In this document: positions 3,631 to 59,501 of the stretch, one piece after another
Numbering within the stretch: the first letter of the stretch is position 1
Layout of the letters: the number at the start of each line of letters is the position of its first letter
DNA from: Deltaproteobacteria bacterium
GTDB taxonomy: Bacteria; Myxococcota_A; Polyangia; Fen-1088
Length of the DNA stretch: 64,000 bases
Direction: 5' to 3'
NCBI GenBank assembly: GCA_033763315.1
Contig: JANRKS010000032.1
Span: 384,001-448,000, forward strand
Program-made: the position numbers and the translations under genes
The notes under the pieces: model-generated
Told to the model about the DNA's origin: nothing
The model's input: the letters and a program-made list of their open reading frames with translations, nothing else
The model's database searches: none

Positions 3631-4761
3631 CTATTCGGCCGCGAGCAAACGGTTGACGGCGGCGGCCGAAAGCCCACGAAACCGCTTTCGTTTGGCCGTT
3701 TGCACCTGCACGGCACCAAAACGTGCGGGAAGGGCGCCGTCACGAATGCCCCGCTCAAGGTGCGAAAGCGCTGGCGGCGACAACGTGGCGAGCGTGCCTG
3801 AAAGAATCACATTCGCCAGGCCAAATAGGTTCAACGCGGCCGCGATGGCTTGTGCGGTGGCGGTGAGCGTGTCCAGCAACCAAGGGGCCGGGGAGGGGGA
3901 GGACAGCGCCTGCGCCACGCTCTTCGATTCCACACGTGCGGCGCTCCACGACGCATGCAACCCGCCATCACCCAACAACGTTTCCAGGCAACCGCGTGCG
4001 CCGCAGCCACACAAGCGGGTGTGGCCCACAACCGGCGAATGGCCAAGCTCGCCCACAACCGCAGAGGCACCGGCAAACAAACGCCCTTGCATCACAACCG
4101 CGGCGCCCACGCCTTCGCCGCTGTCGACCAGCAAGAAGTCGCGCTCGTTGGGGGCGTCCCGCATGTGGCCCAGCGCCAGCGCGCGGATCTCTTGCACCAC
4201 GCACACTGGTTTGCCGAAGATCTCGCGGCACTCAGCGAGCCAATCGATGCCTTTGGCCCATGGCAAGTTCGGTGAGAACAAACAGCGGCCCTGGTCCTCG
4301 TCCACAACGCCGGGCAAGCTTACAACGCCGCCCCACAAACCTTTCGGTGCGTGGCCATGCACCAAGACGCGCAGCCTTTGCAACCATGTATCTGCCGCCT
4401 TGGGCGTGGCGAATCGTTCGTGCGGTGTCTCGTCGTTGGTGCCGGCCACGGGCGCCCATTGCACATCGGTGTGGTTGACGCCCACCCGCACCAGCGCAAA
4501 CCGCGGCGTATTTGTTTGCAACCGCAGCGGTTGCCCCGGTCGCCCCAACCGCGTTTGCGTCGCAGGATCTTCGGTGACTTCCACGGCCACGTTTTCAATC
4601 ACGCGGGCGCGCAGCAGTTCATCCAAAATCTTTCCCGCCGTGGGACGGCTCATACCCGTGCGGTCCGCAAGTTCCGCCCGTGTGGCCACTTCATCGCGCA
4701 GCAGGCGTTCAAGCAGCAACCGCTGGTTCATCACACGCAGGCTGCTGGGAATGCCTTTCAT
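3631..4761 (-). CDS. ROK-family transcriptional regulator
   Basis: N-terminal HTH (TRAELADRTGMSRPT); GELGH and CGCGARGCLE ROK motifs. Confidence 0.9.
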   Translation of the reverse strand: MKGIPSSLRVMNQRLLLERLLRDEVATRAELADRTGMSRPTAGKILDELLRARVIENVAVEVTEDPATQTRLGRPGQPLRLQTNTPRFALVRVGVNHTDVQWAPVAGTNDETPHERFATPKAADTWLQRLRVLVHGHAPKGLWGGVVSLPGVVDEDQGRCLFSPNLPWAKGIDWLAECREIFGKPVCVVQEIRALALGHMRDAPNERDFLLVDSGEGVGAAVVMQGRLFAGASAVVGELGHSPVVGHTRLCGCGARGCLETLLGDGGLHASWSAARVESKSVAQALSSPSPAPWLLDTLTATAQAIAAALNLFGLANVILSGTLATLSPPALSHLERGIRDGALPARFGAVQVQTAKRKRFRGLSAAAVNRLLAAE

Positions 4762-4770
4762 GGGGTTCCT

Positions 4771-6945
4771 TTAGATACCCAAAGCGCTGCCGCGTGCCAA
4801 GGCGGAGGCTGCATGTTGCACAAAATCGATGCGAACCTCGGATTCCACAACCGATCGCCGAATGCCACCCCACGCGGCGGCCGGCGTGAGTGCGAGATAA
4901 TCATTGCCGGGGCGGATTTGGTCCTGCGCCAAGGCACGCAACGCCCGCTCTACTTGCGTTTGCAGCGCGTGTACATCGCGCTGGTGGCGTTTGGCTAGCG
5001 CCAGCACAGCTGTGAGTGCTTCGGCGAACCCTGCGGCCGCGGGCGCTTGCGGAATGAGAACGTGCGAGAAGCCATAGTGGCCTGTAAATGCGCCGGCGCG
5101 TTCATCGGGAGAAAACTGCAAACGCCCTATGAAGTCAGCGTAGCCAAGGCAAAAGTCGACCCACCGTGGTTTGACCACGTCGTCGGGCAACGCTTCGGCC
5201 GCCATGCATGTCCAGCTGTCGATGCCATAGCTGAAGCGACCTAGAAAATCTGCGTATTTTTCGCCCGTGAGAAAGTCGAGAGCGCGCACGGCGGCGGTTT
5301 GCAGCGTTGGATCTTGCAGCGTTCGTGCGGCTGAGGCCAACGCCATGGCGGCTTCCTCCGTGGCGAACATCTGGGCGGGTGCCTTCGTGACGCGTCGACC
5401 GGCCTGCACATCAAACACCGCGGCCAAGTCGCCGTTGGATTTTTGTTGGTGAAGTAAAAATGCGGCCAGGTCAGCGGCTTGCTTTGCCCACGTGGTGTCG
5501 CCAGAGGCACGCTGATAAGTGACAAGCGCGAGCAGTGCCAAAGCATTGGGCCCCACGCGCGCCACGGCGCCTTCGCGCAAACACAGGTGGCCATCACACG
5601 CGGGCTCCATGTGGTTTAGCAACCATTGCAACGCACGCTGGCTGCCGGCAAGAAACCCATGCCCCGGAGCCAAGGGTTCAAGCATCGCCAACGCATAGGC
5701 TGTGCCTGCGTGGCGTGCTTCGTTGTATCCCTGCGCAGGCGTTGTGTTCGTCCACGGCCGATACACGTAAGCGAATGTTCCGTCAGGCGCTTGCGCCCGC
5801 ACGATGAATTGGCCGGCAGCCACGGCGGCCGCGTGCGTGTTGGCTGGGACTTGCACCACCCCTCGTTCGACTGAGCAAACATGCGCGGGTGGCTCTTCGC
5901 ACTCGATGAAACCTTGCACGGCGAAGCGCTCCACCGTGCCAGCGGCAGGATGCTTGAGTTGTTGTGCAAGCCACGGCGTGGGCACGCCCAAGCGCAGCTC
6001 ATTGAGGAATGGCAACAACGGCGATTCACCATAGACGTCGGCCGCGATCACATCGTCTGGAAGCACAACCGTGTTTGCATCTGCACCCTTCACACGCAAC
6101 CCATCGCGCCCCGGATCAAAGGCCATGGCTTGCAGCGCTTCTGGCCACGCCAACACAGGCGCCGCAGGGCCGACGACGTCGAGCTTAAGTTGAGCGGCCG
6201 CGTTGGTATCCGGCAGACGCGAGGCCGCTTGCACGGCCGCTGCACGCAACGAATCGCCTTGACCGTGCGCGCGCGCCTGCAAACGCCCATTGGCGAAAGC
6301 CGACAGATAAACTTCATGCGCATCTCCTGAGCCCGATGGCGCTGCACACGGCTTTTGGATCAAGCACTGCCGCGCGCCTTTGAGCGCTTGCGCCACAACG
6401 TCGCGTGGCAAAGGCGACGGGGCCGCCAAGGCAAACCGCGTGTGAATGCCGGCCGTGCCGACCAGCGGCAACAACACGAACGTGGCCAGCACACCACGAA
6501 TGCCTCTGCGCCACAGCTGGCTGATGCCGCCCTGAGGGGCAAGCAAGGCTTTGAGCCGCAGCGCTGGATAAAGCGAAAGCAACTGAAACGCGGTTGCGGC
6601 GATGAGCAACGCCACCAACGACGCGCCCTTGCCGAACGAGCCATAAACGGATCGAAGATAAGCCCATGACAACAACAGCCCGGCCACCGCGATGACACCA
6701 AATGCGATGCCCACCAACGCGGTCACGACGGCGACTTTTCTCGCCCACGGGCGCTGTCGCCACAGGCTTGGCGCCGTGACCACATGCGCCCCCAGGTACA
6801 AAAGCAGCGCCGCATTGGCTGCGGGCCATTTCCACGGCACAAATGCCAGCAACACCATCGCTGCAACGCCTCCGTACAAAGCGTCGAGCGCCGCCCAAAA
6901 GCGAAACGTGGATGAATAACTATGAGGGGCGGCGGGCTCAATCAT
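4771..6945 (-). CDS. Membrane-anchored protein of unknown function: N-terminal TM helices, AMMECR1-like middle, alpha-helical barrel C-terminus
   Basis: About 5 hydrophobic segments; FDPGRDGL; FAYVY..YNEARHAGTAYAL; EVRIDFVQHA. Start ATG 6945 chosen because the longer ORF overlaps the next gene. Confidence 0.6.
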   Translation of the reverse strand: MIEPAAPHSYSSTFRFWAALDALYGGVAAMVLLAFVPWKWPAANAALLLYLGAHVVTAPSLWRQRPWARKVAVVTALVGIAFGVIAVAGLLLSWAYLRSVYGSFGKGASLVALLIAATAFQLLSLYPALRLKALLAPQGGISQLWRRGIRGVLATFVLLPLVGTAGIHTRFALAAPSPLPRDVVAQALKGARQCLIQKPCAAPSGSGDAHEVYLSAFANGRLQARAHGQGDSLRAAAVQAASRLPDTNAAAQLKLDVVGPAAPVLAWPEALQAMAFDPGRDGLRVKGADANTVVLPDDVIAADVYGESPLLPFLNELRLGVPTPWLAQQLKHPAAGTVERFAVQGFIECEEPPAHVCSVERGVVQVPANTHAAAVAAGQFIVRAQAPDGTFAYVYRPWTNTTPAQGYNEARHAGTAYALAMLEPLAPGHGFLAGSQRALQWLLNHMEPACDGHLCLREGAVARVGPNALALLALVTYQRASGDTTWAKQAADLAAFLLHQQKSNGDLAAVFDVQAGRRVTKAPAQMFATEEAAMALASAARTLQDPTLQTAAVRALDFLTGEKYADFLGRFSYGIDSWTCMAAEALPDDVVKPRWVDFCLGYADFIGRLQFSPDERAGAFTGHYGFSHVLIPQAPAAAGFAEALTAVLALAKRHQRDVHALQTQVERALRALAQDQIRPGNDYLALTPAAAWGGIRRSVVESEVRIDFVQHAASALARGSALGI

Positions 6946-6988
6946 GCGCAGGGCGCATGATAGGACGAATTTCCTTAGCGGGGGAAGG

Positions 6989-9652
6989 CTAACGCATTTG
7001 CTTCCGGCGGCGCAGGCGCATGAGCGCCAACCCGAGCAACGCCAGGGTTGGCAACCAGCTGTGTGCACGCCCTTGCCCCACGTGGCAGCTGCAGCCCTCG
7101 CCAGAACCTTGTGTGACGGCGGGAGCGGCGCCGCCGTCCATTTGCGTTTCGAATGCGGGTGGGCACGTTGTGCCTGGGGCGCTGACGCACGCGTCGCACG
7201 CGTTCACGAGGCCGTCACCATCGGGATCTTGGCAAGCGTCGCCAATGCCATCGTGATCGCCATCGGCTTGGTCTGGGTTGTAGTGTTTGGGACAGTTGTC
7301 ATACAACGCGATTTGCCCATCAGGCTTGCTTTGCCCGCCGCAGTCGGCGTCGTCGTCAGCCACTTCATTGGGCTCAAAGTGCGTGAAGCGTAGAAAATCG
7401 ATCCGAAGGCAGCCTGAATCTTTGAGGTTGTTAGGATCGCAATTGGTGAGCGGCTCGCTTGAGGGGCGGAAGCTGAATTGTGTGTGAACCTTGTTTGTGA
7501 AAGCATCGATTTTCGCGAGGTTCGTGGCGTAAGTGTGGAACTCACCGTCAGCAATCAGGAAGGTGCTGGGGTCGGTGGGAATGCGCACAGTGACGTCACC
7601 GATCTGCGCCGTGGCGAACGCATTCTTGGGTCCGTCCTTGGGCAACGAGAGGCGCGCCAAGAAGCTGTTGATGCCGCCTTCAACATTGGCCTGCCCGTCG
7701 ATCCACAACGGCGGTTGGTTGTTGTGGCTGGCAAAAGTCAGCGTTCCCGCGGCGCCGGGCGTGCGCACGTTCATGAAGCTCAAAATCTTGTCAGTGTTGT
7801 CATCCGGTTGTGGACCTGACACCACGAACTGCAAACCACCGGTCGGCACGAATGAACGTTTGTCGTCCATCTCCTGCATGAACTCCCAGTAAGGCGTCTC
7901 GTCGATGTTCGAGTCATAACCCGCCACCATCTTGCCGCGGTAACTCGTCAACATGTACCACTGCTGCTGCCAAGCCTTGCGCCACTTCTTCGCAAGCGCG
8001 ATGTGTTTGGCGTTGATCTCCGCGAGCCAATCGGGGCGCTCGCAGATTTTTCCAATGGCGCACGTGGAGCCGGGCATGTTTTGGCTTTCGTACTCGTGTG
8101 GCTTCGTAACGATCACCCACAGTTGCTTGAAGACGTGTGGCGCGTCTTCGAATGCCGGGACGCGCACGGGCGTGTTGCCCAGCAATTCTGGCAGCGTGAA
8201 GCTCACGCGGCGGCTGTCGGAGAACATGGTTACGGGCTCGGCGCCGATGCCGATTGCGAGCAGCTTGGGCAAGCCCATACGCGGACCGGCTGTGCGGGTG
8301 AACCTATCAAGAGTCGCTATTCGCCCAATCATGTCGCCCGGGCGCGCGGCGAAGGCTTGAATCGTTGGTACGCCATCAAGACGGTTCGACGATGAACTGG
8401 GAACCAGACCCAACAGCCACAGCTCCAGAGGATGGAACATCGAAGTCGCTTTCCCCCCGTGGGGCCAGGAGGACACTCGGTTGGCTGCCGGGCCGAATGC
8501 CTTCGCGGTTCGATTGCCATTTTCCTCCCAATTCACGCCGCCCATCAACGAAGTGTCGAAATCGATGAACGAGTTCCATATGCGGGGTCGAATCCGTTGG
8601 TACATTGCACCTTCGGTGTCGCACGACCTCGTCCTTTGGGCCGAGATCCTTCCCGAGGGCGGCCGAAGCGAGCCAGCTAGAGAAGATTTCACGTCCGGGC
8701 AGACCGACAACGGCCCTGCCATTTTGGGCAATATGCCTTCGCCCTGCTGAAAGCCCGATGTTTGGCTCAAATCAGGCTCGCGGAGAGCCATGCCCGGCCA
8801 GCTAGGTGGCGCCAGCGGCTCGGCGTTCGCAGAGGCTTGTGTACAGAAATTTGCTGGCAACAGAGCAAGCGGGATCGCTGGTTCGTCCCGGTTGTCCTGA
8901 GGGGAGCAAAAACTACGTGCGTCAGCAGACATCGAATACCAGCTGTCATCCTCCATTCCAGCTTCTGCCTTCAGGTATGGTCCAAACATCTGCGCCGACG
9001 CCTGCGCAAAGGCCTGATATGCTGACATGCCATCCGAGCACATTGAGTTTGGCCCGCAGTTCTTGTAGCGTCCGCGTTCAGGATCTGCATTGGCAGTGTC
9101 ACGGGGTGTAGTGTCCCCCATCGTCGTTGTGCTACCACCCACGGTGAATCCCACGAATGGGAAGTTTGGGTTGCGCTGCGTGACCTTCTGACCAATTCCA
9201 GCAATCTCGTTGACGCCCTCGCTTAACGCCGCATCGCCGAGCTTGGCACCGAGGACTGTTCCAGCCTTGGGGGCACGATAAAACATCATTGGGTTTGTGT
9301 CGCCGCCGAAGACGCCGGCCTGAGCTGCATCAACATAGAATAGGCCCATCTGATCCCAGACCGCCATTGCATCGTTCGCTCTGAGGATCTGAACAGCCTT
9401 TGTTGCGACTTTGACCTGGTCGAAAGTGCAGTTCGTTCTGAATATGTTCTGATCGCGCAGGGATCCGTCACGACAACCAGATGTTAAGTCGTCAGTCCCT
9501 TCCAATATAAGGACGCCGTCTTCAACACAGTTGACCTTCTTCGCGGCGTTACATTTCAATGCTTGGTGTATCTCGGCACGCGCGGCGGCCGTCTCCGCCA
9601 AGTACCCACCAACCATCACAAACGTCGTTACCAGAGCAGCTTTTTTCATCAT
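6989..9652 (-). CDS. Large secreted surface protein with thrombospondin type-3-like repeats and MYXO-CTERM sorting signal
   Basis: Signal peptide; DNCPKHYNPDQADGDHDGIGDAC and DPDGDGLVNACDAC; C-terminal GCSCHVG..WLPTLALLGLALMRLRRRK; SD AAGGAG. Confidence 0.85.
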   Translation of the reverse strand: MMKKAALVTTFVMVGGYLAETAAARAEIHQALKCNAAKKVNCVEDGVLILEGTDDLTSGCRDGSLRDQNIFRTNCTFDQVKVATKAVQILRANDAMAVWDQMGLFYVDAAQAGVFGGDTNPMMFYRAPKAGTVLGAKLGDAALSEGVNEIAGIGQKVTQRNPNFPFVGFTVGGSTTTMGDTTPRDTANADPERGRYKNCGPNSMCSDGMSAYQAFAQASAQMFGPYLKAEAGMEDDSWYSMSADARSFCSPQDNRDEPAIPLALLPANFCTQASANAEPLAPPSWPGMALREPDLSQTSGFQQGEGILPKMAGPLSVCPDVKSSLAGSLRPPSGRISAQRTRSCDTEGAMYQRIRPRIWNSFIDFDTSLMGGVNWEENGNRTAKAFGPAANRVSSWPHGGKATSMFHPLELWLLGLVPSSSSNRLDGVPTIQAFAARPGDMIGRIATLDRFTRTAGPRMGLPKLLAIGIGAEPVTMFSDSRRVSFTLPELLGNTPVRVPAFEDAPHVFKQLWVIVTKPHEYESQNMPGSTCAIGKICERPDWLAEINAKHIALAKKWRKAWQQQWYMLTSYRGKMVAGYDSNIDETPYWEFMQEMDDKRSFVPTGGLQFVVSGPQPDDNTDKILSFMNVRTPGAAGTLTFASHNNQPPLWIDGQANVEGGINSFLARLSLPKDGPKNAFATAQIGDVTVRIPTDPSTFLIADGEFHTYATNLAKIDAFTNKVHTQFSFRPSSEPLTNCDPNNLKDSGCLRIDFLRFTHFEPNEVADDDADCGGQSKPDGQIALYDNCPKHYNPDQADGDHDGIGDACQDPDGDGLVNACDACVSAPGTTCPPAFETQMDGGAAPAVTQGSGEGCSCHVGQGRAHSWLPTLALLGLALMRLRRRKQMR

Positions 9653-9665
9653 GTCTCCTTGATGG

Positions 9666-11669
9666 CTAGCGAGAGAGGGATTGCGAAGGCGTCAAAAGCA
9701 GGCAACTCTGCACCGTGCCGATCAGGCCGCACGTCGTGCCTTGTGCCAGATTGGGGTTCGTCTGTTCGTCCGAGTACCAGATGTTTGTAGGGACGCGGCA
9801 CTCCGCCGCAGAGGGTGAACAACTGCGCGAACACGTTGACGTTTCGCTGGAGCAGGCGTAGCCAGGCATGAACTTTCCCCCGCACCGGCTATCAAGGGGG
9901 ATGCTGAGGGACTTTGTTGTTCCTCCAGCCTCAACAGGGGCTGTGATCGCCGATCCAGCTTCGTAGTTGATACCATTGGCGTTGCACGAGAACACGCATC
10001 GGCCGACGCCGGTCTCGTCTGCCGCACAGACATATATGGGGCCATCACGCTGAATCAGTCTCTGGGATTTCATAACCAGCTGACGTTGCGCTTCCAGCAG
10101 CTCTTCACCAACCTTCGATTTCAACTGTTCGAGTTCAGCCGGCGTTGCATTGCCGTTCACGAACCATTTCTCTACAACGTCTGTCTTCTCCACCCCTGCC
10201 TCTGACGTCTCTACAAATCCTCGACACTGCGCAATGGCGGGGCCGCAAAGGGCGTTGTACCGAACTCGCTTTGCGGCACAGAATGGGATCTGCGTGCCGT
10301 TGAAGAGACCACACTCCATGCCAATGCTTGCACACGGATCCGCGCCTCTGGTAGCGTTATCGCAACCGACCAGAGTGCTTGCCAGACCCACGTTCCTCAG
10401 CACGAGGTCCTTGCGTGGGGACAAACGACTCGCAGAAATGTTGCGCGGATCAAGGAGGCCGGATTCCCTCAAGGTTCTTTCTGTTGCCGCTTCGACACTC
10501 ACAATGTCCATTTCCAAATTCCACAGCCACCGAATCGGACGGTAGCCTGGAGCATCCGTCTTCTTCCGACGTGGCGCCGGCCCCGCCAACATCGATAGTT
10601 CGTCATAATACTTCTCGAGATCGAAAAACATCGCGTGCGGCACAATCATCAGACCCACCGGCGCCACTAGCGCATGCGTTTGACCGGCGGGCGCGGGCAC
10701 AACGTCGATGTCGAAGGTCTGCACGCGCCGATCGTCCTGCGCACTGTCGAACAGGCGGTACTTGTCTTGCTCGGCCGTGGCGCCAGCGATGGTTTCGCCC
10801 AGCGTTTCCCATCCGTTGACCAGCAAACAATCCACGCGCTTCTTACGATGCCACAATTCAATTTGTGGCTGCGGGATGCGGCGATCGCCCACGGCATACG
10901 CTGAGATTGTGGGCACCACGTAGGCTCGCGCGTCCACGATGGGGCAATTGATGGCAAACCCTGAAGGCTCTATCTTGATCCCCGATGTGGCCGCCGACGC
11001 CGCCGCCAATAAACTGGGAACGTCCTTGACTGAATCAGGATCAAACCCGTTGGGCACGCGCACCTTCACCACTTCCCACAGCCCTGAATACTTCTCGCCA
11101 CGCACATCGGCGCCGCCCGGCAACACATCCACCAACGGCCGCTGGTAATCCGCTGAACCGCGGCGTTCGTCGAGCCAGAGGTCTTCTTCGCGGTCTTCTT
11201 GCTTGGCTTGCAAGCGAGCAAAGCCATCCACGGCGCGCACATCTTTGCCACCTTTCATGAAGAACTGCCCCGTGGCCGTGTTCTTCTCAGGTTTCGCAAA
11301 CAAGGGCTCGCCCTTTTCGGTGAAGAAGAAGTACATCGGGAACACCGGAGCCGCGCCGGCCGTGCGGCCCGCAAGCGCTTCGGCGGCGTTGGGCATATTG
11401 CCCTTCACGAAGTTCACATTGCCGAAGTCATAAAACGTGGCGCCTTCGCCGCGCAAAAAGGCCGGCTTCGGTTTGATGATGTTGCGGCCGCCGAGATCGA
11501 CAAATAGCGAATGGGCCACGCCTCCATCGCCGCTTTCCAAGGCGTCAACGTCGGCGCCGGCATCGTCGGGCGTGCCACCGCCCACTTGCAGATCGCCGCA
11601 GCTCGTGAGTGCCACCGCTGTACATAGCCACAGGCGCGTGCGCCGCTTCCATCGTTGATGTTCTTGCAT
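9666..11669 (-). CDS. Cys-rich lipoprotein of unknown function
   Basis: Lipobox ALTSC; two loosely related segments (PG..KYSGLWEVVKV..NCPIV and PGYRPIRWLWNL); Cys-rich C-terminus; GGAG before ATG 11669. Confidence 0.75.
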   Translation of the reverse strand: MQEHQRWKRRTRLWLCTAVALTSCGDLQVGGGTPDDAGADVDALESGDGGVAHSLFVDLGGRNIIKPKPAFLRGEGATFYDFGNVNFVKGNMPNAAEALAGRTAGAAPVFPMYFFFTEKGEPLFAKPEKNTATGQFFMKGGKDVRAVDGFARLQAKQEDREEDLWLDERRGSADYQRPLVDVLPGGADVRGEKYSGLWEVVKVRVPNGFDPDSVKDVPSLLAAASAATSGIKIEPSGFAINCPIVDARAYVVPTISAYAVGDRRIPQPQIELWHRKKRVDCLLVNGWETLGETIAGATAEQDKYRLFDSAQDDRRVQTFDIDVVPAPAGQTHALVAPVGLMIVPHAMFFDLEKYYDELSMLAGPAPRRKKTDAPGYRPIRWLWNLEMDIVSVEAATERTLRESGLLDPRNISASRLSPRKDLVLRNVGLASTLVGCDNATRGADPCASIGMECGLFNGTQIPFCAAKRVRYNALCGPAIAQCRGFVETSEAGVEKTDVVEKWFVNGNATPAELEQLKSKVGEELLEAQRQLVMKSQRLIQRDGPIYVCAADETGVGRCVFSCNANGINYEAGSAITAPVEAGGTTKSLSIPLDSRCGGKFMPGYACSSETSTCSRSCSPSAAECRVPTNIWYSDEQTNPNLAQGTTCGLIGTVQSCLLLTPSQSLSR

Positions 11670-11702
11670 GTTGAATCTCCGCGTTCTGTCTTGACGCTTT
11701 GA

Positions 11703-11736
11703 CTTGTTCCCGCAGGTCGTGCGGAAGTTACAGCGC
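11703..11736 (-). promoter_or_regulatory. Putative ECF sigma promoter, copy 1 (upstream of the lipoprotein and MYXO-CTERM genes)
   Basis: Minus strand GCGCTGTAA-CTTCCGCACGAC-CTGCGGGAACAAG; outer blocks and 12-nt spacer length identical to the copy at 14192-14225. Confidence 0.75.
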
Positions 11737-12579
11737 AAACGCAAAGCCCAACGTCATCGTGGTGATGACGTTGGCGATCTCTGTCGTCATGCGATCGCTG
11801 CTTGTCACCAAGACCACGTCAGGCGCAAAAGGCCACGCGTTCAGGCGCAGATCCACAAAAAACGGCAATTTGCCCTTCCCTTGCCCACGCACCCCCGCTT
11901 GGGCTCCCCACGCTGCCGACCAATCCCGTTGCGCGTTTGGAACGCCCACACCTTTGGCCGTAAAAACGGACGCCGTCAGCCCAACATCGGCCTGCAACGC
12001 AAACCGACGAAACATGTTCTGCCACAAAACCGCAGGCGCGAGCTGCGTCGCCATCCAACGCGCTTCACCTTCACCCACGGCCACGGTGCGCGTCCCGCTT
12101 ATGGCCAACATCACGCGTGCGCCCCAGTGCCCGCCGGCGCCGATCCTCGTGACATCGCCGAGCGCAGCGGCAGCCACGCCATTTTCATCGAACGCCAGTC
12201 CAGGCCCGAGGCCCACCCACCACGCGCCGACGGGCGGCGGCGGCGGCAAAGGCTTCGCTTGCAGTTGTACGTCCACAGGTGGCAACGCCAAGGCTTCTGG
12301 TGATGCGAGCCAAGCCGCCAGCACAACACCTGCGCGCACAGCTTGTTCTTCGCAGCTGCCCTGCGCAGGCAAGATGCGCGTGCGCGATTGCCCCAAGGGA
12401 TCTGTGAAGGTCATCGCCACACCTTCTGATGCGGGCGACAAATGCAGGTGCCCTTCGGTGGTTTCGTTGGTCACCGACTCAGCGAGCACCGTGGATACCA
12501 GTGCGGGGCTGGGGCAATCGGTCTGCCCTGAAACAATCACGTCGCCGTTGAGCAGCGGCAGAAGCCAAAGAATCATCAT
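11728..12579 (-). CDS. Hypothetical exported protein; C-terminal part looks like an outer-membrane beta-barrel
   Basis: N-terminal CPSP..C domain, Pro linker, amphipathic Gly/aromatic-rich strands, ends LGFAFAL; ATGA overlap with the upstream gene. Confidence 0.6.
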   Translation of the reverse strand: MMILWLLPLLNGDVIVSGQTDCPSPALVSTVLAESVTNETTEGHLHLSPASEGVAMTFTDPLGQSRTRILPAQGSCEEQAVRAGVVLAAWLASPEALALPPVDVQLQAKPLPPPPPVGAWWVGLGPGLAFDENGVAAAALGDVTRIGAGGHWGARVMLAISGTRTVAVGEGEARWMATQLAPAVLWQNMFRRFALQADVGLTASVFTAKGVGVPNAQRDWSAAWGAQAGVRGQGKGKLPFFVDLRLNAWPFAPDVVLVTSSDRMTTEIANVITTMTLGFAFAL

Positions 12580-13619
12580 GGGGAGTTTTCGGTTTCGTTC
12601 GTGCCTCCCAACGCACGTCGCACGCTTTGCGCAAAGCGCCCGTGGGGGAAGCGTGTTTGATAATCCAAGTACACGCGGCGTGCCGCGGCAGAATCCCCAA
12701 GTTCTGCAAGACACACTCCCTCACCGTATAACACCCGTTCTTGTTGTAAAGGACGAAGTGCCGCCCCACGAATCTGTTGCAACGCGGCCATCGCTTCCTT
12801 GCATTGATGGCCCGCAGCCAGAAGTTCTGCGCGTAACAACGCAAGTTCGATCGGCAGGCTTCGCTTGTGTGCCACGGCATTCAATGCCTCCAAGGCTTCC
12901 GAACGCTGACCCAACGCCAAGAGCGCTTCGGCGCTGAGCATCTTTGCTTCATAAGCGAGATCGCTGTCTGCGTAAACGCGTTCAAACTCTTTCAACATAT
13001 CAAGCGCCACCGCGGGCCTGCGCTCCACGCGCAACGACCGCACCGCTTCACGCAGCAGTTGAGCCTCGGCAGACGGCGGAAGCGCCCACGCGGTCGTGTC
13101 TCCCACTGTCGGCGCAACGGCGTCAGTCGGTTCTGCGGGTGGCTCGGGCGGCATCTTGATTTCTGTTGCAGCGCGCTTGGCAAACGCCAAACGTTTCTGC
13201 GGAACAACGACCTCCGGTCGAACCTCAGGAGCGCTGGGGGGTTCAGCCTTCTCCTGAGGTTCCACCGTTGGTCTGAGATCTTGCTTCGGCGTCGCCGGCT
13301 TTGGCTTTTGCGGCAGCGGCGCCATGTGCGGAGCGCGCTCGTGCGCGAACCAATGTCCGCCGATGATTGCTGTTGTGGCCGCGCCCACCGTCATGCCCAG
13401 CAGCAGCACCGGCAGCGAAGTCAGCGCGGGAATAAGGCGTCGCAAAGCCGATCGTCTGTGAATGGCACGCGTGCGACGCAACAGAAGCTCCACCTGTGCG
13501 TCGTGGAATCGGGGTTGCGGGCCGGCGGCACGAAACAGATCACCGGCACGGACGCCAGAAGCGTCGAAGTCGGGAGGAACGTCGCGCAGGCGCACGGGAT
13601 CTTGGATGGGCCTACTCAT
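12576..13619 (-). CDS. Putative membrane anti-sigma factor with periplasmic TPR domain
   Basis: Directly after the ECF sigma; one TM, Pro/Lys/Glu linker, TPR-like tail (AEAQLLREA..YLDYQTRFPHGRF). Confidence 0.7.
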   Translation of the reverse strand: MSRPIQDPVRLRDVPPDFDASGVRAGDLFRAAGPQPRFHDAQVELLLRRTRAIHRRSALRRLIPALTSLPVLLLGMTVGAATTAIIGGHWFAHERAPHMAPLPQKPKPATPKQDLRPTVEPQEKAEPPSAPEVRPEVVVPQKRLAFAKRAATEIKMPPEPPAEPTDAVAPTVGDTTAWALPPSAEAQLLREAVRSLRVERRPAVALDMLKEFERVYADSDLAYEAKMLSAEALLALGQRSEALEALNAVAHKRSLPIELALLRAELLAAGHQCKEAMAALQQIRGAALRPLQQERVLYGEGVCLAELGDSAAARRVYLDYQTRFPHGRFAQSVRRALGGTNETENSP

Positions 13620-14178
13620 GGGATGCGCCTTTGCTGCCGCTTTGCAGTTGCGATAACTCGACGAAAAGTTGTGCGCGCCCCCGGTGCAGTCGCACCCGCA
13701 CATTGTTGGGTGTGCAGCCCAAGAGCAACCCGATCGCCTCGGTTTCCATGCCCTCAAGCTCGAACAAGATCAAAGGGGTACGGTGCTTTTCAGGCAAACG
13801 ATCGAGCGCCTTGTAGAGCAAGCGCACCTTCTCCTGCCGTTCAAGATCCTCGCCAGGGCCGCGAATGTGAGCGACATGATCGGGCTCATGCTCGCTGCGT
13901 TTGAGCCAGCGACGGAAGCGGCCCTCCGACCGGCGCCGTTTCAAGATAACCTTCTCAGTGATGCGAAACAGCCAGGTTCCAAGCTTGGCATCGCCGCGAA
14001 AGGCGCTACGCCCCTTCCACGCGGCGATGAGCACCTCTTGCACGAGATCTTCCGCATCGCACCCTGGGCCTGCCAATCGTCTCACCCAGCCTTCAATGCG
14101 ACGCACGTCCTCCGCGCCCAGGGCGTCGGATTCGCCGGCTTTGGGCTCGGCTGGCAGGGCAGGGGACAGGCGCAGCAT
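13612..14178 (-). CDS. ECF sigma-70 factor
   Basis: Region 2 DAEDLVQEVLI..FRGDAKLGTWLFRI; region 4 LDRLPEKHRTPLILFELEGM..VRVRLHRGR. Confidence 0.93.
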   Translation of the reverse strand: MLRLSPALPAEPKAGESDALGAEDVRRIEGWVRRLAGPGCDAEDLVQEVLIAAWKGRSAFRGDAKLGTWLFRITEKVILKRRRSEGRFRRWLKRSEHEPDHVAHIRGPGEDLERQEKVRLLYKALDRLPEKHRTPLILFELEGMETEAIGLLLGCTPNNVRVRLHRGRAQLFVELSQLQSGSKGASHE

Positions 14179-14191
14179 CGGAAGTGAAAGG

Positions 14192-14225
14192 CTTGTTCCC
14201 GCAGCCTGTCGCAGAATTACAGCGC
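14192..14225 (-). promoter_or_regulatory. Putative autoregulatory ECF promoter, copy 2
   Basis: Minus strand GCGCTGTAA-TTCTGCGACAGG-CTGCGGGAACAAG ending 13 nt before the sigma ATG. Confidence 0.75.
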
Positions 14226-14378
14226 GCGGAAGAAGGATCGTCGATTTTCAGCCAGGCCGCCCGTGTGATGGCGGCTACCCCGGGAGGGCGCACGCACAAG
14301 GCCCCTCTGGCGCGTCTGGCTGCGGCATGTTCAAGTGCAGCTGCCCCCAACATCCTCATTTAGCCGGAGTGTTTCTTG

Positions 14379-15551
14379 ATGCGTCGTATCTCCTCGTTTC
14401 TCCTTCTAGGCGTACTGTCTCTGTGCGCAGGAACGGCCTCATCCGCAGACCTTGCCACCACACCACCCATGGGCTGGAACAGTTGGAACAAGTTCGCCTG
14501 CAACGTGAGCGAAGACTTGATCAAGGGTGCCGCAGACGCGCTCGTGTCCAGTGGCATGAAAGACGCGGGCTACAACTACATCGTGATTGATGACTGCTGG
14601 CAGATCTCCCGCGACGCCAAAGGCAAGATTGTGGCGGATCCCAAGCGCTTCCCCGCCGGCATCAAAGCGTTGGCGGATTACGTGCACGGCAAAGGCTTGA
14701 AGTTCGGCATCTACTCAGATGCGGGCACCCAAACGTGCGCCAAGCGGCCGGGATCCAAAGGGCACGAAGCGCTGGACGCCAAGACGTATGCCGAATGGGG
14801 CGTTGACTACGTGAAGTACGACTGGTGCAACACCCCAGGGCAAGACACGCGCGATGCTTACGCGCGCATGAGCCAAGCGCTGAGCGCATCGGGCCGCCCC
14901 ATGGTGTTTTCGATTTGCGAGTGGGGCTCAACGCAACCGTGGTTATGGGCGCAAGGGGTGGGGCACTTGTGGCGCACCACGGGAGACATTCAAGATTGTT
15001 GGGATTGCGCGCGCAGCTGGGGCGGCATGGGCATCACGCACATCATCGATCAAATGGCGGAGCTGCATCCCTTTGCTGGGCCGGGGCACTGGAATGATCC
15101 CGATATGCTTGAAGTGGGCAATGGCGGATTGAGCGCCATCGAAAACCGATCGCACTTTAGCTTTTGGGCACTGTTCGCTGCACCGTTGATCGCAGGCAAC
15201 GACCTGCAAAACATGACGCCCGAGGTTCGCGCGATCCTCACGAACAAGGAGGTCATCGCCGTGAACCAAGACGCTCTCGGTATGCAAGGGCGCAAAGTGT
15301 GGGACGACGGGCCGGGTGAAGTGTGGATTAAGCCTTTGGTCAACGGCGCCCGTGCGGTAATTCTGTTTAACCGCGGCACAGAAGCGCGCAAGCTCACGGC
15401 CACGTGGCAAAGCCTTGGCCTGTTTCCGGCGGGCAAAGCGGTGGTGCGCGACTTATGGACGCAAGCTGACGTGGGCACGATGACCGAGAAGTTTTCGGCC
15501 CAAGTCGAACCGCACGGCGTGGTGATGGTGACAATCAAGCCGAAGCCATAG
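14379..15551 (+). CDS. Alpha-galactosidase, GH27
   Basis: Signal peptide; TPPMGWNSWN, IDDCW, VKYDWC, WRTTGDI, WNDPDMLEVGN. Confidence 0.95.
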   Translation: MRRISSFLLLGVLSLCAGTASSADLATTPPMGWNSWNKFACNVSEDLIKGAADALVSSGMKDAGYNYIVIDDCWQISRDAKGKIVADPKRFPAGIKALADYVHGKGLKFGIYSDAGTQTCAKRPGSKGHEALDAKTYAEWGVDYVKYDWCNTPGQDTRDAYARMSQALSASGRPMVFSICEWGSTQPWLWAQGVGHLWRTTGDIQDCWDCARSWGGMGITHIIDQMAELHPFAGPGHWNDPDMLEVGNGGLSAIENRSHFSFWALFAAPLIAGNDLQNMTPEVRAILTNKEVIAVNQDALGMQGRKVWDDGPGEVWIKPLVNGARAVILFNRGTEARKLTATWQSLGLFPAGKAVVRDLWTQADVGTMTEKFSAQVEPHGVVMVTIKPKP

Positions 15552-15553
15552 CG

Positions 15554-16771
15554 CTACGGCAGGTCGCGAACGCAACGGAAACCAACCGCATCCCAGGTAT
15601 CAAAACCGTCATATTCGTAGACGCTAAAATCGAACATGGCGTTCCATCCGCGCATCAAGGCCTTTGAATCTCGATATTCCTTTTTTGCAGTAAACTCGCC
15701 GAAGCCACGATCGCGGTTGGCGCCGATCCATCGCGTTCCGTTCCACGTCGAGGCCGCGGGCAAGATAAACTTTGGATCAAGAGCAATAAAGCGCGGTGGC
15801 ATTTGTGTGTCGGTTTTGGAGCGTGCCAAAACTTGCACAAATTCGGCGCTGTCGAACTGATAGACGAGCGCTTCGCTGGAATCCGTGCCGTCGCCCGCCT
15901 GCACGCTCAGAAGCACGCTGTTGCTGTCCTTCTTCACCTCTAACCATTCAGCGAAATTATTGAAGTCCCATATCACCTCGCCGTTAATTAACGTGAGTGC
16001 CCGACGTTTCTCACCACCTTGGCCCCAAGGTGTGGCCTCTGTGGCGCCTGTGTCGCTATAGGGATTTGAAGTGTTGCTTACAGCCACACCGCCAAAGCCA
16101 GTTGGTAAGTTCCCCATGCCCCGAGCACAGCCACTCCACGTCCAGCTCGCGGCTTCCAACTGCAGCGCGATCGTCATCCACTCGTCGTTGGTCATCAAGT
16201 GGTAGCCTGCTCCCAAAGCCGCGCATTGTGCCTTGGCCTGCTTCTGGCTGATAAAACGCCAAGGCCTTCCGTCGGGCCGTGATTCTGGATGGTGCTCCGT
16301 CAGTGACAGCTGTTCAGGCTTTCCGTCGGCTCGCCCCTCCAAAACAACTTCGCCCTTGCTGTTCACAGCCTTCATTTCAAATTTCGGCACGCAGAAATCA
16401 CGATCCACCTGTCCAATGCCCGTTGATGATTTACCTGGGACCAATGCGTATTGCGCAGGGCAACCAGCGTTGGTCGCAAGCAAAGGAATTTCCTTGGGTG
16501 GCGAGCAGGGGTCAGTCGGTGCGGTGTCGGGCACGTTTGCAACCACGGCGTCGTCGACGGTGTTGCGCATGTCGATGCTGCGCGTGTCATCAAGAGACGC
16601 GTCGGTCAGTGCTGCCCCGGCATCCGTGACTTCGCCTGGGCGTGCGACCAGCTCGTATCCCAACCGACCGCACGAGACGAACGCGATGCCAAGAAGGACC
16701 CAAGGAAGGTGGTGAAGGATTGGACGGCTCACGTGTTCTCGCAGGCGCAAGATGCGCACATCGAAAATCAT
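15554..16771 (-). CDS. Lipoprotein with FGE-sulfatase-like C-type lectin fold domain
   Basis: Lipobox FVSCGRLGY; FCVPKFEMK, PWRFISQKQAKAQC, HLMTNDEW, NGEVIWD..EW, terminal VGFRCVR. Start uncertain. Confidence 0.75.
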   Translation of the reverse strand: MIFDVRILRLREHVSRPILHHLPWVLLGIAFVSCGRLGYELVARPGEVTDAGAALTDASLDDTRSIDMRNTVDDAVVANVPDTAPTDPCSPPKEIPLLATNAGCPAQYALVPGKSSTGIGQVDRDFCVPKFEMKAVNSKGEVVLEGRADGKPEQLSLTEHHPESRPDGRPWRFISQKQAKAQCAALGAGYHLMTNDEWMTIALQLEAASWTWSGCARGMGNLPTGFGGVAVSNTSNPYSDTGATEATPWGQGGEKRRALTLINGEVIWDFNNFAEWLEVKKDSNSVLLSVQAGDGTDSSEALVYQFDSAEFVQVLARSKTDTQMPPRFIALDPKFILPAASTWNGTRWIGANRDRGFGEFTAKKEYRDSKALMRGWNAMFDFSVYEYDGFDTWDAVGFRCVRDLP

Positions 16772-16818
16772 CGGCAGGAGCGCCTCTGCGCTTTAATCTC
16801 GTGGTCGCCTATTGCAAA

Positions 16819-17295
16819 TCAGCGAGTGCGCTTTAGCGACGTGAGTAGGTCTTTTTTTGCTTCGCGCGCACCTTGCGCCGCGAGTTCGTCAGCGCGCGCG
16901 TTCCCCGCGTTGCCGTTGTGTGCGCGAATCCATTGCCAGCGGACCACAATCTGTCTTCTGTGGATGCACGCAGCAATGCGCCTTACGCTCGCCGCGATAA
17001 GCGGGTCCACCTTCGCAAAATCACTTTGGCGCCAGGTGTCCAGGTTCTTCGTCATGTTCTGCACAAGTGGCAGGTTGTCGGAAAAGACAACCACCGCCGC
17101 GTGATCAGGCAGCACCGATAACGCTTCTGCCACCGCCTGGTACTCCATAATCTTGGCGAGCGTGCCTATTGCTTTGCCGTAGCCCTCGACCGGTAACCCC
17201 GCTGGCGGCTCGATCCTAAAGCCCCGTCCCCCTGGTGCGCCCTCGCTGGCCTTGCACGACCCGTCCGTGTAACACAGGTATTCGACGCGCGTCAC
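16819..17295 (-). CDS. rnhA: Ribonuclease HI-family protein (divergent)
   Basis: YTDGS, E in IMEY, SD, WQWIRAHNGNAGNARADELA; GTG 17295 lies 6 nt after TATCCT. Confidence 0.8.
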   Translation of the reverse strand: MTRVEYLCYTDGSCKASEGAPGGRGFRIEPPAGLPVEGYGKAIGTLAKIMEYQAVAEALSVLPDHAAVVVFSDNLPLVQNMTKNLDTWRQSDFAKVDPLIAASVRRIAACIHRRQIVVRWQWIRAHNGNAGNARADELAAQGAREAKKDLLTSLKRTR

Positions 17296-58459: not shown

Positions 58460-58966
58460 CTAAAGAGCCTCGCAGGCCTTTGGCACCGGCGCCTTGCCCT
58501 TGGCGTCGACCTTCACGAAGTCTTTGCAGACGCACATTTTCTTGCAGGCCAGGGGGCCCACGACGAAGGGTTGAGCGCAAGCGAAGCCCTGGGTGCAACG
58601 CTTGTCGTTGGTGTTGTTCTTGTCCCGCGTCTCGGCCTCGTCGCAGTCCGAGTTCTTGGAGCACTCAGCCGTGCAAAACGCTGACGTTCCGCTGTTCACC
58701 ACGCCCTGGTCGTAGGAAGGCTGGATGCAGAGCCGGGTGGGGCATTCAAGCGCTTGATCGTTAAACACACCCGAGGTTTCAGTCGTGCTGGCGAGTACTT
58801 TGCAGGTTCGACCGATCGCCTGGTCTTCACAGGCCGAGGTGCCGAGGAGCGCTGCCGCCATTACGAAAAGTCCAAAACCGTTTGCCAGGTGGCCCCATCG
58901 GCCGCGTGAAACGTTACGGGTCAACTGCAGTAACCAAGCGCGCGAAGCACCAAATTGGGGGCGCAT
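58460..58966 (-). CDS. cglC: Gliding-motility lipoprotein CglC (GltK)-like
   Basis: Lipobox TSAC; IGRTC..ALEC..RLC..FCTAEC..C..CKKMCVC Cys pattern; adjacent to gltC; SD AAGGAG. Confidence 0.65.
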   Translation of the reverse strand: MRPQFGASRAWLLQLTRNVSRGRWGHLANGFGLFVMAAALLGTSACEDQAIGRTCKVLASTTETSGVFNDQALECPTRLCIQPSYDQGVVNSGTSAFCTAECSKNSDCDEAETRDKNNTNDKRCTQGFACAQPFVVGPLACKKMCVCKDFVKVDAKGKAPVPKACEAL

Positions 58967-59025
58967 GAAAGCTCCTTCGGGGTCCCGGTAGAGGACAAGC
59001 CTGTGCGGCTCGTCGAGGGTGAACA

Positions 59026-59054
59026 TTCTTAGGTCTTCGTCAGTAGAGTGTCAA
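59026..59054 (-). promoter_or_regulatory. Possible sigma-70 promoter for cglC
   Basis: Minus strand TTGACA, 17-nt spacer, TAAGAA. Confidence 0.45.
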
Positions 59055-59200: not shown

Positions 59201-59501
59201 GGGCCCCTTTCCGGACTCTTAAACTTATCTTCTGCCGGTCCGGTGTGGGCTTTGTGTCTTAAGAGTTTCGGCGCCCGGCGCCTTCTCGGCGTCAATGTGT
59301 CTGACTCGGTGCCTGTCTCGATGCTCATCCTCGACCCCCTTTGTGTTCTATGGCGTGAGGGCTTATTTGCTACCCTCCCGCTTCTTTGTTCTCTTCCTTG
59401 CTCCCTGCAACCCTAGCTTTGACCGTTGCCCCTTATCCCGTTGTCCCTCCTTGCTTTAGGGCACAACCAACATTTTCAGGACACCCGTGAGGACCCAAGA
59501 C

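Follow-up and report, generated by a model that had tools for sequence, protein, structure and literature searches.

A candidate envelope-spanning anti-sigma system of Myxococcota, split in two, docked through a TPR domain and variable in its lipoprotein output

We describe a five-gene cassette on the minus strand of a 64-kb stretch of DNA from a Deltaproteobacteria bacterium assigned to the Myxococcota (contig JANRKS010000032.1 of assembly GCA_033763315.1, positions 384,001 to 448,000), referred to in its full length of 64,000 nucleotides (nt) as the window. The cassette encodes an extracytoplasmic function (ECF) sigma factor, an anti-sigma-like single-pass membrane protein ending in a tetratricopeptide repeat (TPR)-like domain, a small outer-membrane barrel protein (gene 3), a lipoprotein, and a Cys-rich secreted protein with a MYXO-CTERM-like tail. 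We consider it probable that the cassette constitutes a three-component, envelope-spanning regulator with a dedicated output. The five-gene feature is real, conserved and more than the sum of its annotations, and what is new here is the probable existence, in Myxococcota, of an anti-sigma system that spans the envelope as two separate proteins docked through a TPR domain and whose lipoprotein output varies.

The five open reading frames (ORFs) lie head to tail between positions 6989 and 14178. The gene for the sigma factor (13612-14178; 188 amino acids, aa) and that for the anti-sigma-like protein (gene 2; 12576-13619; 347 aa) overlap by 8 nt at the sigma stop and the anti-sigma ATG, and an ATGA is common to the anti-sigma stop and the start codon of gene 3 (11728-12579; 283 aa). 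The lipoprotein gene (9666-11669; 667 aa) follows after 58 nt, and 13 nt separate its stop from the start of the gene for the Cys-rich secreted protein (6989-9652; 887 aa). The co-orientation of the five genes, the overlaps and the 13-nt junction, all recorded in an initial annotation of this region, are confirmed from the ORF coordinates.

The association of the first three genes extends to other genomes. Species-representative genomes were searched using an alignment of eight consensus-like members of the barrel family that did not include the window protein, and 94 pattern matches led to eight confirmed barrel relatives, hence to eight loci (L001 to L008), in metagenome-assembled genomes labelled Myxococcales, delta proteobacterium or Proteobacteria; this set comes from distant barrel relatives, the nearest relatives of the window falling outside it. 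In all eight loci, a sigma factor homologue (E 1e-30 to 1e-38) is encoded near the barrel gene and on the same strand, and an anti-sigma homologue (E 3e-7 to 3e-20), likewise on the same strand, adjoins the sigma gene. The expectation that the triad is conserved as a unit is thus borne out at every one of the eight loci, all of them reached by way of the barrel alone. As in the window, the sigma and anti-sigma genes overlap at stop and start in six of the seven loci examined, which points to translational coupling, and the anti-sigma-like protein and the barrel are separate ORFs in the window and at every locus. The order of genes is sigma, anti-sigma, barrel, lipoprotein in the window, L007 and L008 (three of nine); barrel, sigma, anti-sigma, lipoprotein in L001, L002, L004, L005 and L006 (five of nine); and barrel, lipoprotein, sigma, anti-sigma in L003 (one of nine). 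That the linkage of the triad survives such rearrangement argues for function. Its phylogenetic spread also speaks in its favour: in a quick tree the window barrel falls in a clade of 19 rows, and the members through which the loci were fetched lie in the other, of 48 rows.

In all eight loci, the product of the gene following the module has, as judged by eye, a signal of lipoprotein type at its N-terminus. The families to which these lipoproteins belong differ from locus to locus, as the initial annotation had anticipated of the payload, and include two FG-GAP proteins (L004), a Vgb-lyase-like propeller (L007) and a DUF1588/DUF1585 protein (L003), those of L001, L005, L006 and L008 having no known family (L002 was not scanned). 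No homologue of the window's own lipoprotein or of its 887-aa protein was found in any of the eight loci.

The two sub-units of the cassette, the triad and the payload, are each headed by a copy of a promoter-like motif. The top direct repeat between positions 6900 and 14400 (D1), identified by a search that presupposed no motif, pairs 11703-11736 with 14192-14225 over 34 nt; the copies are 74% identical, exact at both ends and in register, with nine identical bases, a variable spacer of 13 nt and 13 identical bases. The copy preceding the sigma gene (14192-14225, minus strand) has a -35-like element TGTAATTCT at 14221-14213 and a -10-like element within 14204-14192, and ends 13 nt before the ATG at 14178, while that preceding the lipoprotein gene (11703-11736, minus strand) has a -35-like element TGTAACTTC at 11732-11724 and a -10-like element within 11715-11703, and ends 33 nt before the ATG at 11669. 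The core 13-mer occurs as an exact match only at these two sites in the window; with up to two mismatches, five occurrences were found against 2.7 expected, the looser matches thus being at chance level. One of the two-mismatch occurrences, at 16732-16744 in the first codons of the gene at 15554-16771, was judged to be a chance match, being coding and devoid of a -35-like part.

A related bipartite element, TG(T/A)AAGGT(T/C) followed after about 13 nt by G(G/C)xAC(A/C)AAG, starts 34 to 68 nt before the sigma and lipoprotein start codons of the relatives, several of the sigma starts being approximations from the alignment. Conservation was assessed by a leave-one-locus-out scan in which a 31-nt matrix was applied to both strands of the omitted locus. 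The sites upstream of the sigma and lipoprotein genes ranked first and second in six of the eight loci (L001, L002, L005, L006, L007 and L008), among them a site at 10725 in L002 that was absent from the training set; the single site of L003 ranked first, as did the sigma site of L004, whose lipoprotein site fell outside the top six. A strict -35 pattern gave 12 matches in 1,296 nt of upstream windows versus six in the remaining 254 kb or so, a contrast whose P value is inflated by the derivation of the pattern from these same sites. The proposed heading of both sub-units by a shared motif is therefore confirmed in the window and, through the leave-one-out scan, conserved across the relatives. 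We would expect the sigma factor to activate both copies, judging from the conservation of the motif. In six of the eight loci, the first motif comes only after the barrel gene, which has none of its own, and this fits a pre-existing part of a sensor better than a target gene. A scan for sigma-70 promoters returned nothing in the region, a scan that does not cover ECF promoters.

A hairpin in the last codons of gene 3 (11748-11774, minus strand), directly 5' of the -35-like element of the lipoprotein gene, is terminator-like. It has a perfect stem of 11 base pairs (bp) and a folding energy of -18.3 kcal/mol (z -3.66; none of 200 shuffled sequences folded as well) and is followed by a weak U-rich tail. 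To judge from its sequence, it may act as a partial terminator insulating the payload from read-through.

Gene 3 belongs to a family of its own. A word-index search retrieved only two relatives, and an exhaustive search of 1.84 billion representatives (clusters at 50% identity) was used instead; it yielded 117 representatives at E <= 1e-3, nearly all of 270 to 320 aa and matched end to end. The alignment used here comprises the window protein and 66 of the 116 others, long low-complexity matches, fragments and many low-ranked rows having been left out. Across its 67 rows, Cys76 is invariant and Cys22, Pro23, Arg68, Ala80, Ala84 and Trp90 are nearly so, and the N-terminal domain is slightly more conserved than the barrel (2.36 vs 2.58 bits). 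The AlphaFold2 model of gene 3 (mean predicted local distance difference test score, pLDDT, 91.3) consists of a signal peptide, a beta-alpha-beta-beta-beta-alpha domain (residues 14-92), a Pro-rich linker (93-119) and an eight-stranded barrel (120-282) with long strands of 17 to 19 residues. Foldseek matched the barrel to OmpA, OmpX, Ail, OmpW and OprG at E 2e-6 to 1e-3, and the ESM Atlas placed gene 3 among unnamed Myxococcota clusters whose structural neighbours are OMP_b-brl proteins. The barrel-like character first attributed to gene 3 is accordingly upheld by the model and by the Foldseek matches.

Gene 3 has no Pfam or NCBIfam family, no Pfam model reached its cut-off across the 67 family members, and no chain in the PDB is related by sequence. 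The OMP_b-brl model came closest to gene 3 at E 0.062 and 13.9 bits (cut-off 28.7), and comparably weak matches were present in just two of the 67 members; gene 3 resembles OmpA/OmpX-like barrels in fold only and not in sequence. Its product would, from the modelled fold, reside in the outer membrane. Neither gene 3 nor any of the 67 family members had a Pfam match to TonB_dep_Rec, Plug or STN, and with its 283 aa and eight strands the protein is, as already proposed, not a TonB-dependent receptor.

The sigma factor itself matches Pfam Sigma70_r2 with 57.4 bits (cut-off 24) and Sigma70_r4_2 with 51.8 bits (cut-off 25.7), as well as NCBIfam TIGR02937 with 88.3 bits (cut-off 42.9), and the presence of regions 2 and 4 only, both above cut-off, identifies it as an ECF (group 4) factor. 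None of the equivalog-level models of NCBIfam, the FecI type included, matched it at cut-off. Its nearest solved structures are the ECF sigma factors SigH, SigE and RpoE (E 4e-14 to 1e-12), and it is 33 to 41% identical to the sigma factors of seven of the related loci.

Gene 2 probably acts as the cognate anti-sigma factor, a role suggested by its position, its overlap with the sigma gene and its architecture. Hydropathy points to a cytoplasmic N-terminus of about 60 residues and a single hydrophobic helix at about 62-87, which are followed by a stretch with 22% Pro (105-185) and a TPR-like C-terminal domain (about 185-340). The TPR scores of the window protein are 25.4 bits for TPR_6 (cut-off 26.3) and 23.4 bits for TPR_16 (cut-off 32.7), and its TPR domain also matches YbgF weakly (E 6.7e-7, below cut-off). 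In the relatives, TPR models score above cut-off in L001 (TPR_6, 29.1), L003 (TPR_19, 28.5; TPR_6, 27.8) and L004 (TPR_19, 33.4), and weak matches to BamD/YfiO-like models occur at E 0.05 to 0.1. FecR had no match at E <= 0.01 in the window's gene 2, nor at E <= 0.1 in five relatives, and comparison of the anti-sigma profile with PDB sequences gave no match. Of the earlier description of this protein as an anti-sigma factor with TPRs and no FecR domain, the absence of FecR thus holds, and the TPR assignment clears the cut-offs in L001, L003 and L004 and not in the window. We note that in the anti-sigma relatives of L001 (11469-12968) and L002 (11325-12596) the membrane helix is followed by some 100 additional, beta-rich residues before the Pro-rich linker begins; a FecR-like identity for this insert was suspected from the alignment and dropped, as no Pfam family matches it, FecR included.

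A physical link between the second and third genes is supported by complex prediction. Residues 180-347 of the anti-sigma-like protein, with an alignment of eight rows (the window and seven loci), were modelled together with the N-terminal domain of the barrel protein (residues 14-95; 67 rows). The complex scored 0.84, 0.84 and 0.81 in three runs, and the best of three controls scored 0.01; among reference cases, 116 of 157 solved complexes attained this score, as did two of 215 mismatched pairs, a calibration that is rough since the present prediction used its own alignments. The runs share at least 96% of their contacts, and the pLDDT of the partner is at least 84. The barrel protein contributes residues 74-95, that is, the second helix and what follows, including the near-invariant A84 and W90, and the anti-sigma-like protein offers a groove formed by residues 180-198, 220-235, 256-262 and 286-289, in which L189 and L196 are invariant among the eight sequences. 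Contacts between TPR domains and helices are common in general; recall of a solved complex by the predictor is unlikely because the PDB contains no sequence related to either family. The models thus support binding of the helix of the barrel's N-terminal domain by the anti-sigma TPR domain, a contact that the initial annotation had put forward and that passes a controlled prediction (0.84 versus 0.01).

Taken as an envelope-spanning regulator, the cassette could work as follows. The ECF sigma factor would be held at the inner membrane by the single-pass product of the overlapping next gene, whose long Pro-rich linker would cross the periplasm and present the TPR domain at its end. The groove of this domain is predicted to clamp the conserved amphipathic helix 76-92 in the N-terminal domain of the barrel protein, the barrel itself being tethered by a Pro-rich linker of its own, such that the anti-sigma-like protein and the barrel would between them connect the outer membrane with the cytoplasm. 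Some outer-membrane event would break or alter this bridge and lead to inactivation of the anti-sigma factor, possibly by proteolysis, and to release of the sigma factor. Once released, the sigma factor would transcribe its own operon from the first motif copy, in a positive autoregulatory loop, and the lipoprotein and MYXO-CTERM genes from the second. The variable lipoprotein may be both the output of the system and the thing that it monitors. A broader proposal, which we put forward tentatively and hold to be rather doubtful, is that the genomes of Myxococcota encode many paralogous anti-sigma bridges of this kind, split in two and spanning both membranes, each clamping the N-domain helix of a minimal barrel with its TPR domain and reporting the state of its cognate surface lipoprotein, be it arrival at the outer membrane, capture of a ligand, or loss by exchange or vesiculation.

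A number of observations weigh against an envelope-spanning regulator. On the protein side, all TPR matches of the window's own anti-sigma-like protein fall under the Pfam cut-offs, no anti-sigma domain family (zf-HC2, RskA, FecR) was found in gene 2 or its relatives, and the cytoplasmic part of the protein is short and poorly conserved. The loops of the modelled barrel are very short, which makes it an unlikely ligand receptor and rather an anchor or a relay. The window barrel is only 18 to 26% identical to the locus barrels, and a phmmer search with it finds only two of these eight at E < 1e-3; because of this distance, the transfer of genomic context to the window rests on family membership. 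The eight loci, moreover, are not independent, since L005 and L006 are close relatives and count as one observation. L008 is without sigma region 4 and most of the anti-sigma protein. The module of L008 (9148-9941) looks degenerate, only about the last 80 residues of the anti-sigma protein being left, and its two motifs, barrel gene and lipoprotein gene are intact; decay or an assembly error could be the cause. Correlations between the identity matrices of the sigma, anti-sigma and barrel proteins (Mantel r 0.89-0.93) were dominated by the L005/L006 pair and are not used as evidence.

The motif has weak points of its own in the window. With a matrix built from the relatives' 14 sites, the window sites rank only 12 (lipoprotein) and 67 (sigma) of 127,940, and the -35-like element of the window, TGTAAYT, has diverged from the TGTAAGGT of the relatives, the -10-like half being kept. 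The top match of the window to this matrix is at +58966 (18.2 bits), upstream of no gene. Given the low ranks, we rely on the repeat within the window and on the cross-validation among the loci. There is also almost no 5' leader between the sigma-proximal motif and the ATG at 14178, and the gaps between triad and payload are short enough to be compatible with plain read-through. As to the match at 58966 on the plus strand, it lies antisense within an ORF at 58460-59026, and the next plus-strand gene begins at 59487.

These observations may be read in other ways. Were the barrel the outer-membrane partner of the lipoprotein, acting as its anchor or as a helper in its surface display or export, the sigma and anti-sigma proteins would merely regulate both and no signal would pass through the barrel. 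Analogues for such a helper are RcsF, which is threaded through OmpA-type barrels, and Slam, which serves neisserial lipoproteins. A role of this sort would suit the lipoprotein genes (lipoboxes by eye) that follow the module in the window and in eight of eight loci, the placement of the lipoprotein gene of L003 directly after the barrel gene, the 17- to 19-residue model strands, which resemble the protruding sheets of OmpX/Ail type, and the short motif and Gly-rich tether that the lipoproteins have in common after the lipidated Cys (by eye). It sits less well with a barrel family that is conserved, yet accompanied by mutually unrelated lipoprotein families (FG-GAP, Vgb-lyase-like propeller, DUF1588/DUF1585 and several without a known family), with a window lipoprotein that has no homologue in the eight loci, and with a barrel gene that is not downstream of a motif in six of the eight; the high-confidence predicted partner of the N-terminal domain is, in addition, the anti-sigma TPR domain and, to our knowledge, an eight-stranded barrel has no lumen for the export of a protein. 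We therefore hold it unlikely that the barrel serves the lipoprotein in this way without signalling, noting that a display function and an envelope-spanning regulator are compatible and not mutually exclusive.

A general envelope-stress module, in which the TPR anti-sigma factor would monitor barrel assembly as a reporter and the lipoprotein would be one member of a stress regulon, has a loose analogue in sigma-E/RseA/DegS, which sense unassembled porins. The weak matches of the TPR domains to YbgF and to BamD/YfiO-like models, all of them outer-membrane maintenance proteins, are in keeping with it, as is the relationship of the sigma factor to SigE/RpoE-type stress sigma factors, its nearest solved relatives. 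We find it improbable nonetheless, in view of the size and diversity of the barrel family (117 representatives at 50% identity), the absence of a third exact copy of the 13-mer from the 64-kb window, and the different lipoprotein lying directly behind its own motif copy at each module, an arrangement that many dedicated modules fit better than one stress response. It seems very improbable indeed that the cassette amounts to no more than a common sigma/anti-sigma pair beside unrelated genes and that the motif is a chance or non-promoter repeat: while the looser 13-mer matches are at chance level (5 vs 2.7 expected) and the sigma-70 scan was empty in the region, ECF promoters being outside its coverage, such a view has to contend with the recovery of sigma and anti-sigma homologues at all eight loci fetched through the barrel alone, the cross-validation of the motif by the leave-one-locus-out scan, the rank of the motif pair as the top direct repeat of the region, and the TPR/N-domain complex prediction, which passes.

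The structural inference of the initial annotation is largely right. The novelty of the architecture is not complete, contrary to what was first supposed, as precedents exist in the Dma and ECF21 systems (PMC10927553; PMC7826278). Among characterised systems, Dma1/Das1 of Bacteroides thetaiotaomicron comes closest: the anti-sigma factor of the Bacteroidota Dma/ECF21 systems carries an eight-stranded outer-membrane barrel and controls lipoproteins (PMC10927553). The Dma1 regulon is led by NigD lipoproteins, two of which are among the most strongly regulated members, and one, BT_4719, adjoins das1 (BT_4720) and dma1 (BT_4721) (PMC10927553). In some ECF21 subgroups, anti-sigma and barrel are separate genes at positions +1 and +2 (PMC7826278 supplement), no ECF21 member having been studied at the time of the ECF classification paper (PMC7826278). 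What the cassette has in common with Dma is the ECF sigma factor, an anti-sigma factor (putative in the cassette) that starts in the cytoplasm, crosses the inner membrane as one helix and continues into a long, non-globular linker in the periplasm, the eight-stranded barrel at the far end, which in gene 3 is predicted from the model, and the lipoprotein nature of the main regulated genes, one of them adjacent (PMC10927553). Unlike Dma, it does not place helix, linker and barrel on a single polypeptide, the helix and linker being encoded by gene 2 and the barrel by gene 3 (PMC10927553). The bridge would instead consist of two proteins joined non-covalently, through a TPR domain and an alpha/beta N-terminal domain that are not described for Dma. 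The motif of the cassette also differs from the ECF21 motif GCAACC / CGTCT (PMC7826278 supplement), and its host is a member of the Myxococcota, not of the Bacteroidota, outside of which the authors of the Dma study report that no structurally similar proteins were found (PMC10927553).

Comparison with FecI/FecR/FecA shows differences of another kind: gene 3, an eight-stranded protein of 283 aa, has neither the plug nor the 22 strands of a TonB-dependent transducer and cannot transport, gene 2 and its relatives have no FecR domain, and the output is a lipoprotein and not a transporter. In FecI/FecR/FecA, the periplasmic N-terminal domain of the outer-membrane barrel contacts the periplasmic end of the anti-sigma factor. 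The cassette has the same three tiers, namely an ECF sigma factor, a putative single-pass anti-sigma factor and a barrel with a periplasmic N-terminal domain, and likewise encodes them in clustered genes (PMC11637429, PMC10392083, PMC9249621). By analogy, then, the layout suggests that the cassette works like both Dma and FecIRA, without having the defining single-chain feature of the one or the defining features of the other. A further system to be considered ends in OprF, which has a C-terminal peptidoglycan-binding domain and no N-terminal docking domain. The SigX-CfrX-CmpX-OprF (ECF102) system of Pseudomonas aeruginosa resembles the cassette in that the sigma operon includes a putative anti-sigma factor and an OmpA-family protein suspected of a part in regulation, and differs from it in the inclusion of a mechanosensitive channel and, as far as it is described, in having no TPR anti-sigma factor and no adjacent variable lipoprotein (PMC7826278). 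No paper describing the present module in myxobacteria was found in open-access full text or in bioRxiv.

Turning to the payload, the 667-aa lipoprotein has a lipobox, LTSC, at residues 21-24 (read by eye) and 20 Cys residues, and no Pfam, NCBIfam or PDB match. Forty-three homologues were found, two distant ones carrying DUF7482, and a lipoprotein-type N-terminus was present in all 14 sequences read (the window copy and 13 of the 42 others, one truncated sequence being omitted). By eye, most of the payload N-termini compared (window 11520-11600, minus strand; L001 13045; L003 10903; L004 5764 and 8276; L005 5033; L006 3084) show x-x-x-[H/Y/F/L]-x-[V/I/A]-G after the lipidated Cys and then a Gly/Ala/Asp-rich tether, a stretch that may serve as a signal for sorting or docking, or may simply be a general trait of the phylum.

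The 887-aa protein contains thrombospondin type 3 (TSP3) repeats at about 777-826, which match COMP at E 9.5e-12, and ends with GCSC, a hydrophobic helix and RRRK. The MYXO-CTERM model TIGR03901 scores this tail at 18.5 bits (last 203 residues) or 15.8 bits (last 60), against a cut-off of 20, and each of six full or partial homologues ends with a Cys motif, a hydrophobic helix and an Arg-rich tail. The ESM Atlas gave no usable match for the protein. Its Cys motif, hydrophobic helix and basic tail are like those of the MYXO-CTERM proteins TraA and MtsC, which are sorted by myxosortase (PMC11980579). TSP3 repeats are common to the protein and the MtsC model, which reaches only 31 to 33 bits against a cut-off of 350, and over the repeats only, so that the two are not orthologues. 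Three distant homologues (P0006, P0007 and P0008) bear the tag GGCF(L/M)QP(D/E)S, a helix and basic residues where closer homologues have GCxC, and this tag may represent another type of Cys-containing sorting signal within the one protein family.

Homologues of the lipoprotein and of the 887-aa protein sit on contigs of the same three sizes (11,755, 12,710 and 582,221 bp), indirect evidence that the window's payload pair is kept together in relatives; a barrel homologue with 73% identity sits on an 11,755-bp contig. The notion of a dedicated two-protein payload is accordingly sustained as regards a lipoprotein, one being encoded in every locus, and not as regards the MYXO-CTERM partner, which was seen only in the window's closest relatives; the common theme of the payloads is a first gene that always encodes a lipoprotein. 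The roles in adhesion, kin or prey recognition that the initial annotation offered for the payload receive no support, as nothing in the analysis bears on them. Among the papers found by our search, none linked MYXO-CTERM proteins to an ECF module.

The surroundings of the cassette are as follows. Its upstream neighbour is a divergently transcribed alpha-galactosidase gene, beyond which a gene on the minus strand (15554-16771) encodes a 405-aa protein that begins like a lipoprotein and matches no Pfam family. Downstream, 43 nt past the stop of the 887-aa gene, lies a co-oriented gene (4771-6945, minus strand) for a 724-aa membrane protein with about four N-terminal hydrophobic helices, for which no Pfam, NCBIfam or PDB match and no homologue among the eight loci were found. 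Rfam had no match within 4500-16900.

TonB-dependent cell-surface signalling is the main form in which ECF sigma systems with a link to outer-membrane proteins are known. Single-chain Dma factors have been known since 2024 and were reported to be restricted to Bacteroidota (PMC10927553). The present reading, if true, would widen the Dma principle by a conserved, widespread Myxococcota module that does the same job with two docking proteins, and would give a role and a name to an outer-membrane protein family with no Pfam, NCBIfam or PDB relative. It also predicts which promoter motif a set of ECF sigma factors in myxobacteria would use, and an interface, with barrel helix 76-92 lying in the groove of the TPR domain, that is open to direct experimental probing. 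Should the more doubtful proposal of an array of split bridges prove true as well, it would mean feedback on a principle of one sensor, one lipoprotein, and that the Dma principle evolved or spread beyond the Bacteroidota in a non-covalent form. For the biology of the Myxococcota, the cassette would offer a handle on the ways in which bacteria with a predatory, social life regulate single surface lipoproteins and MYXO-CTERM proteins.

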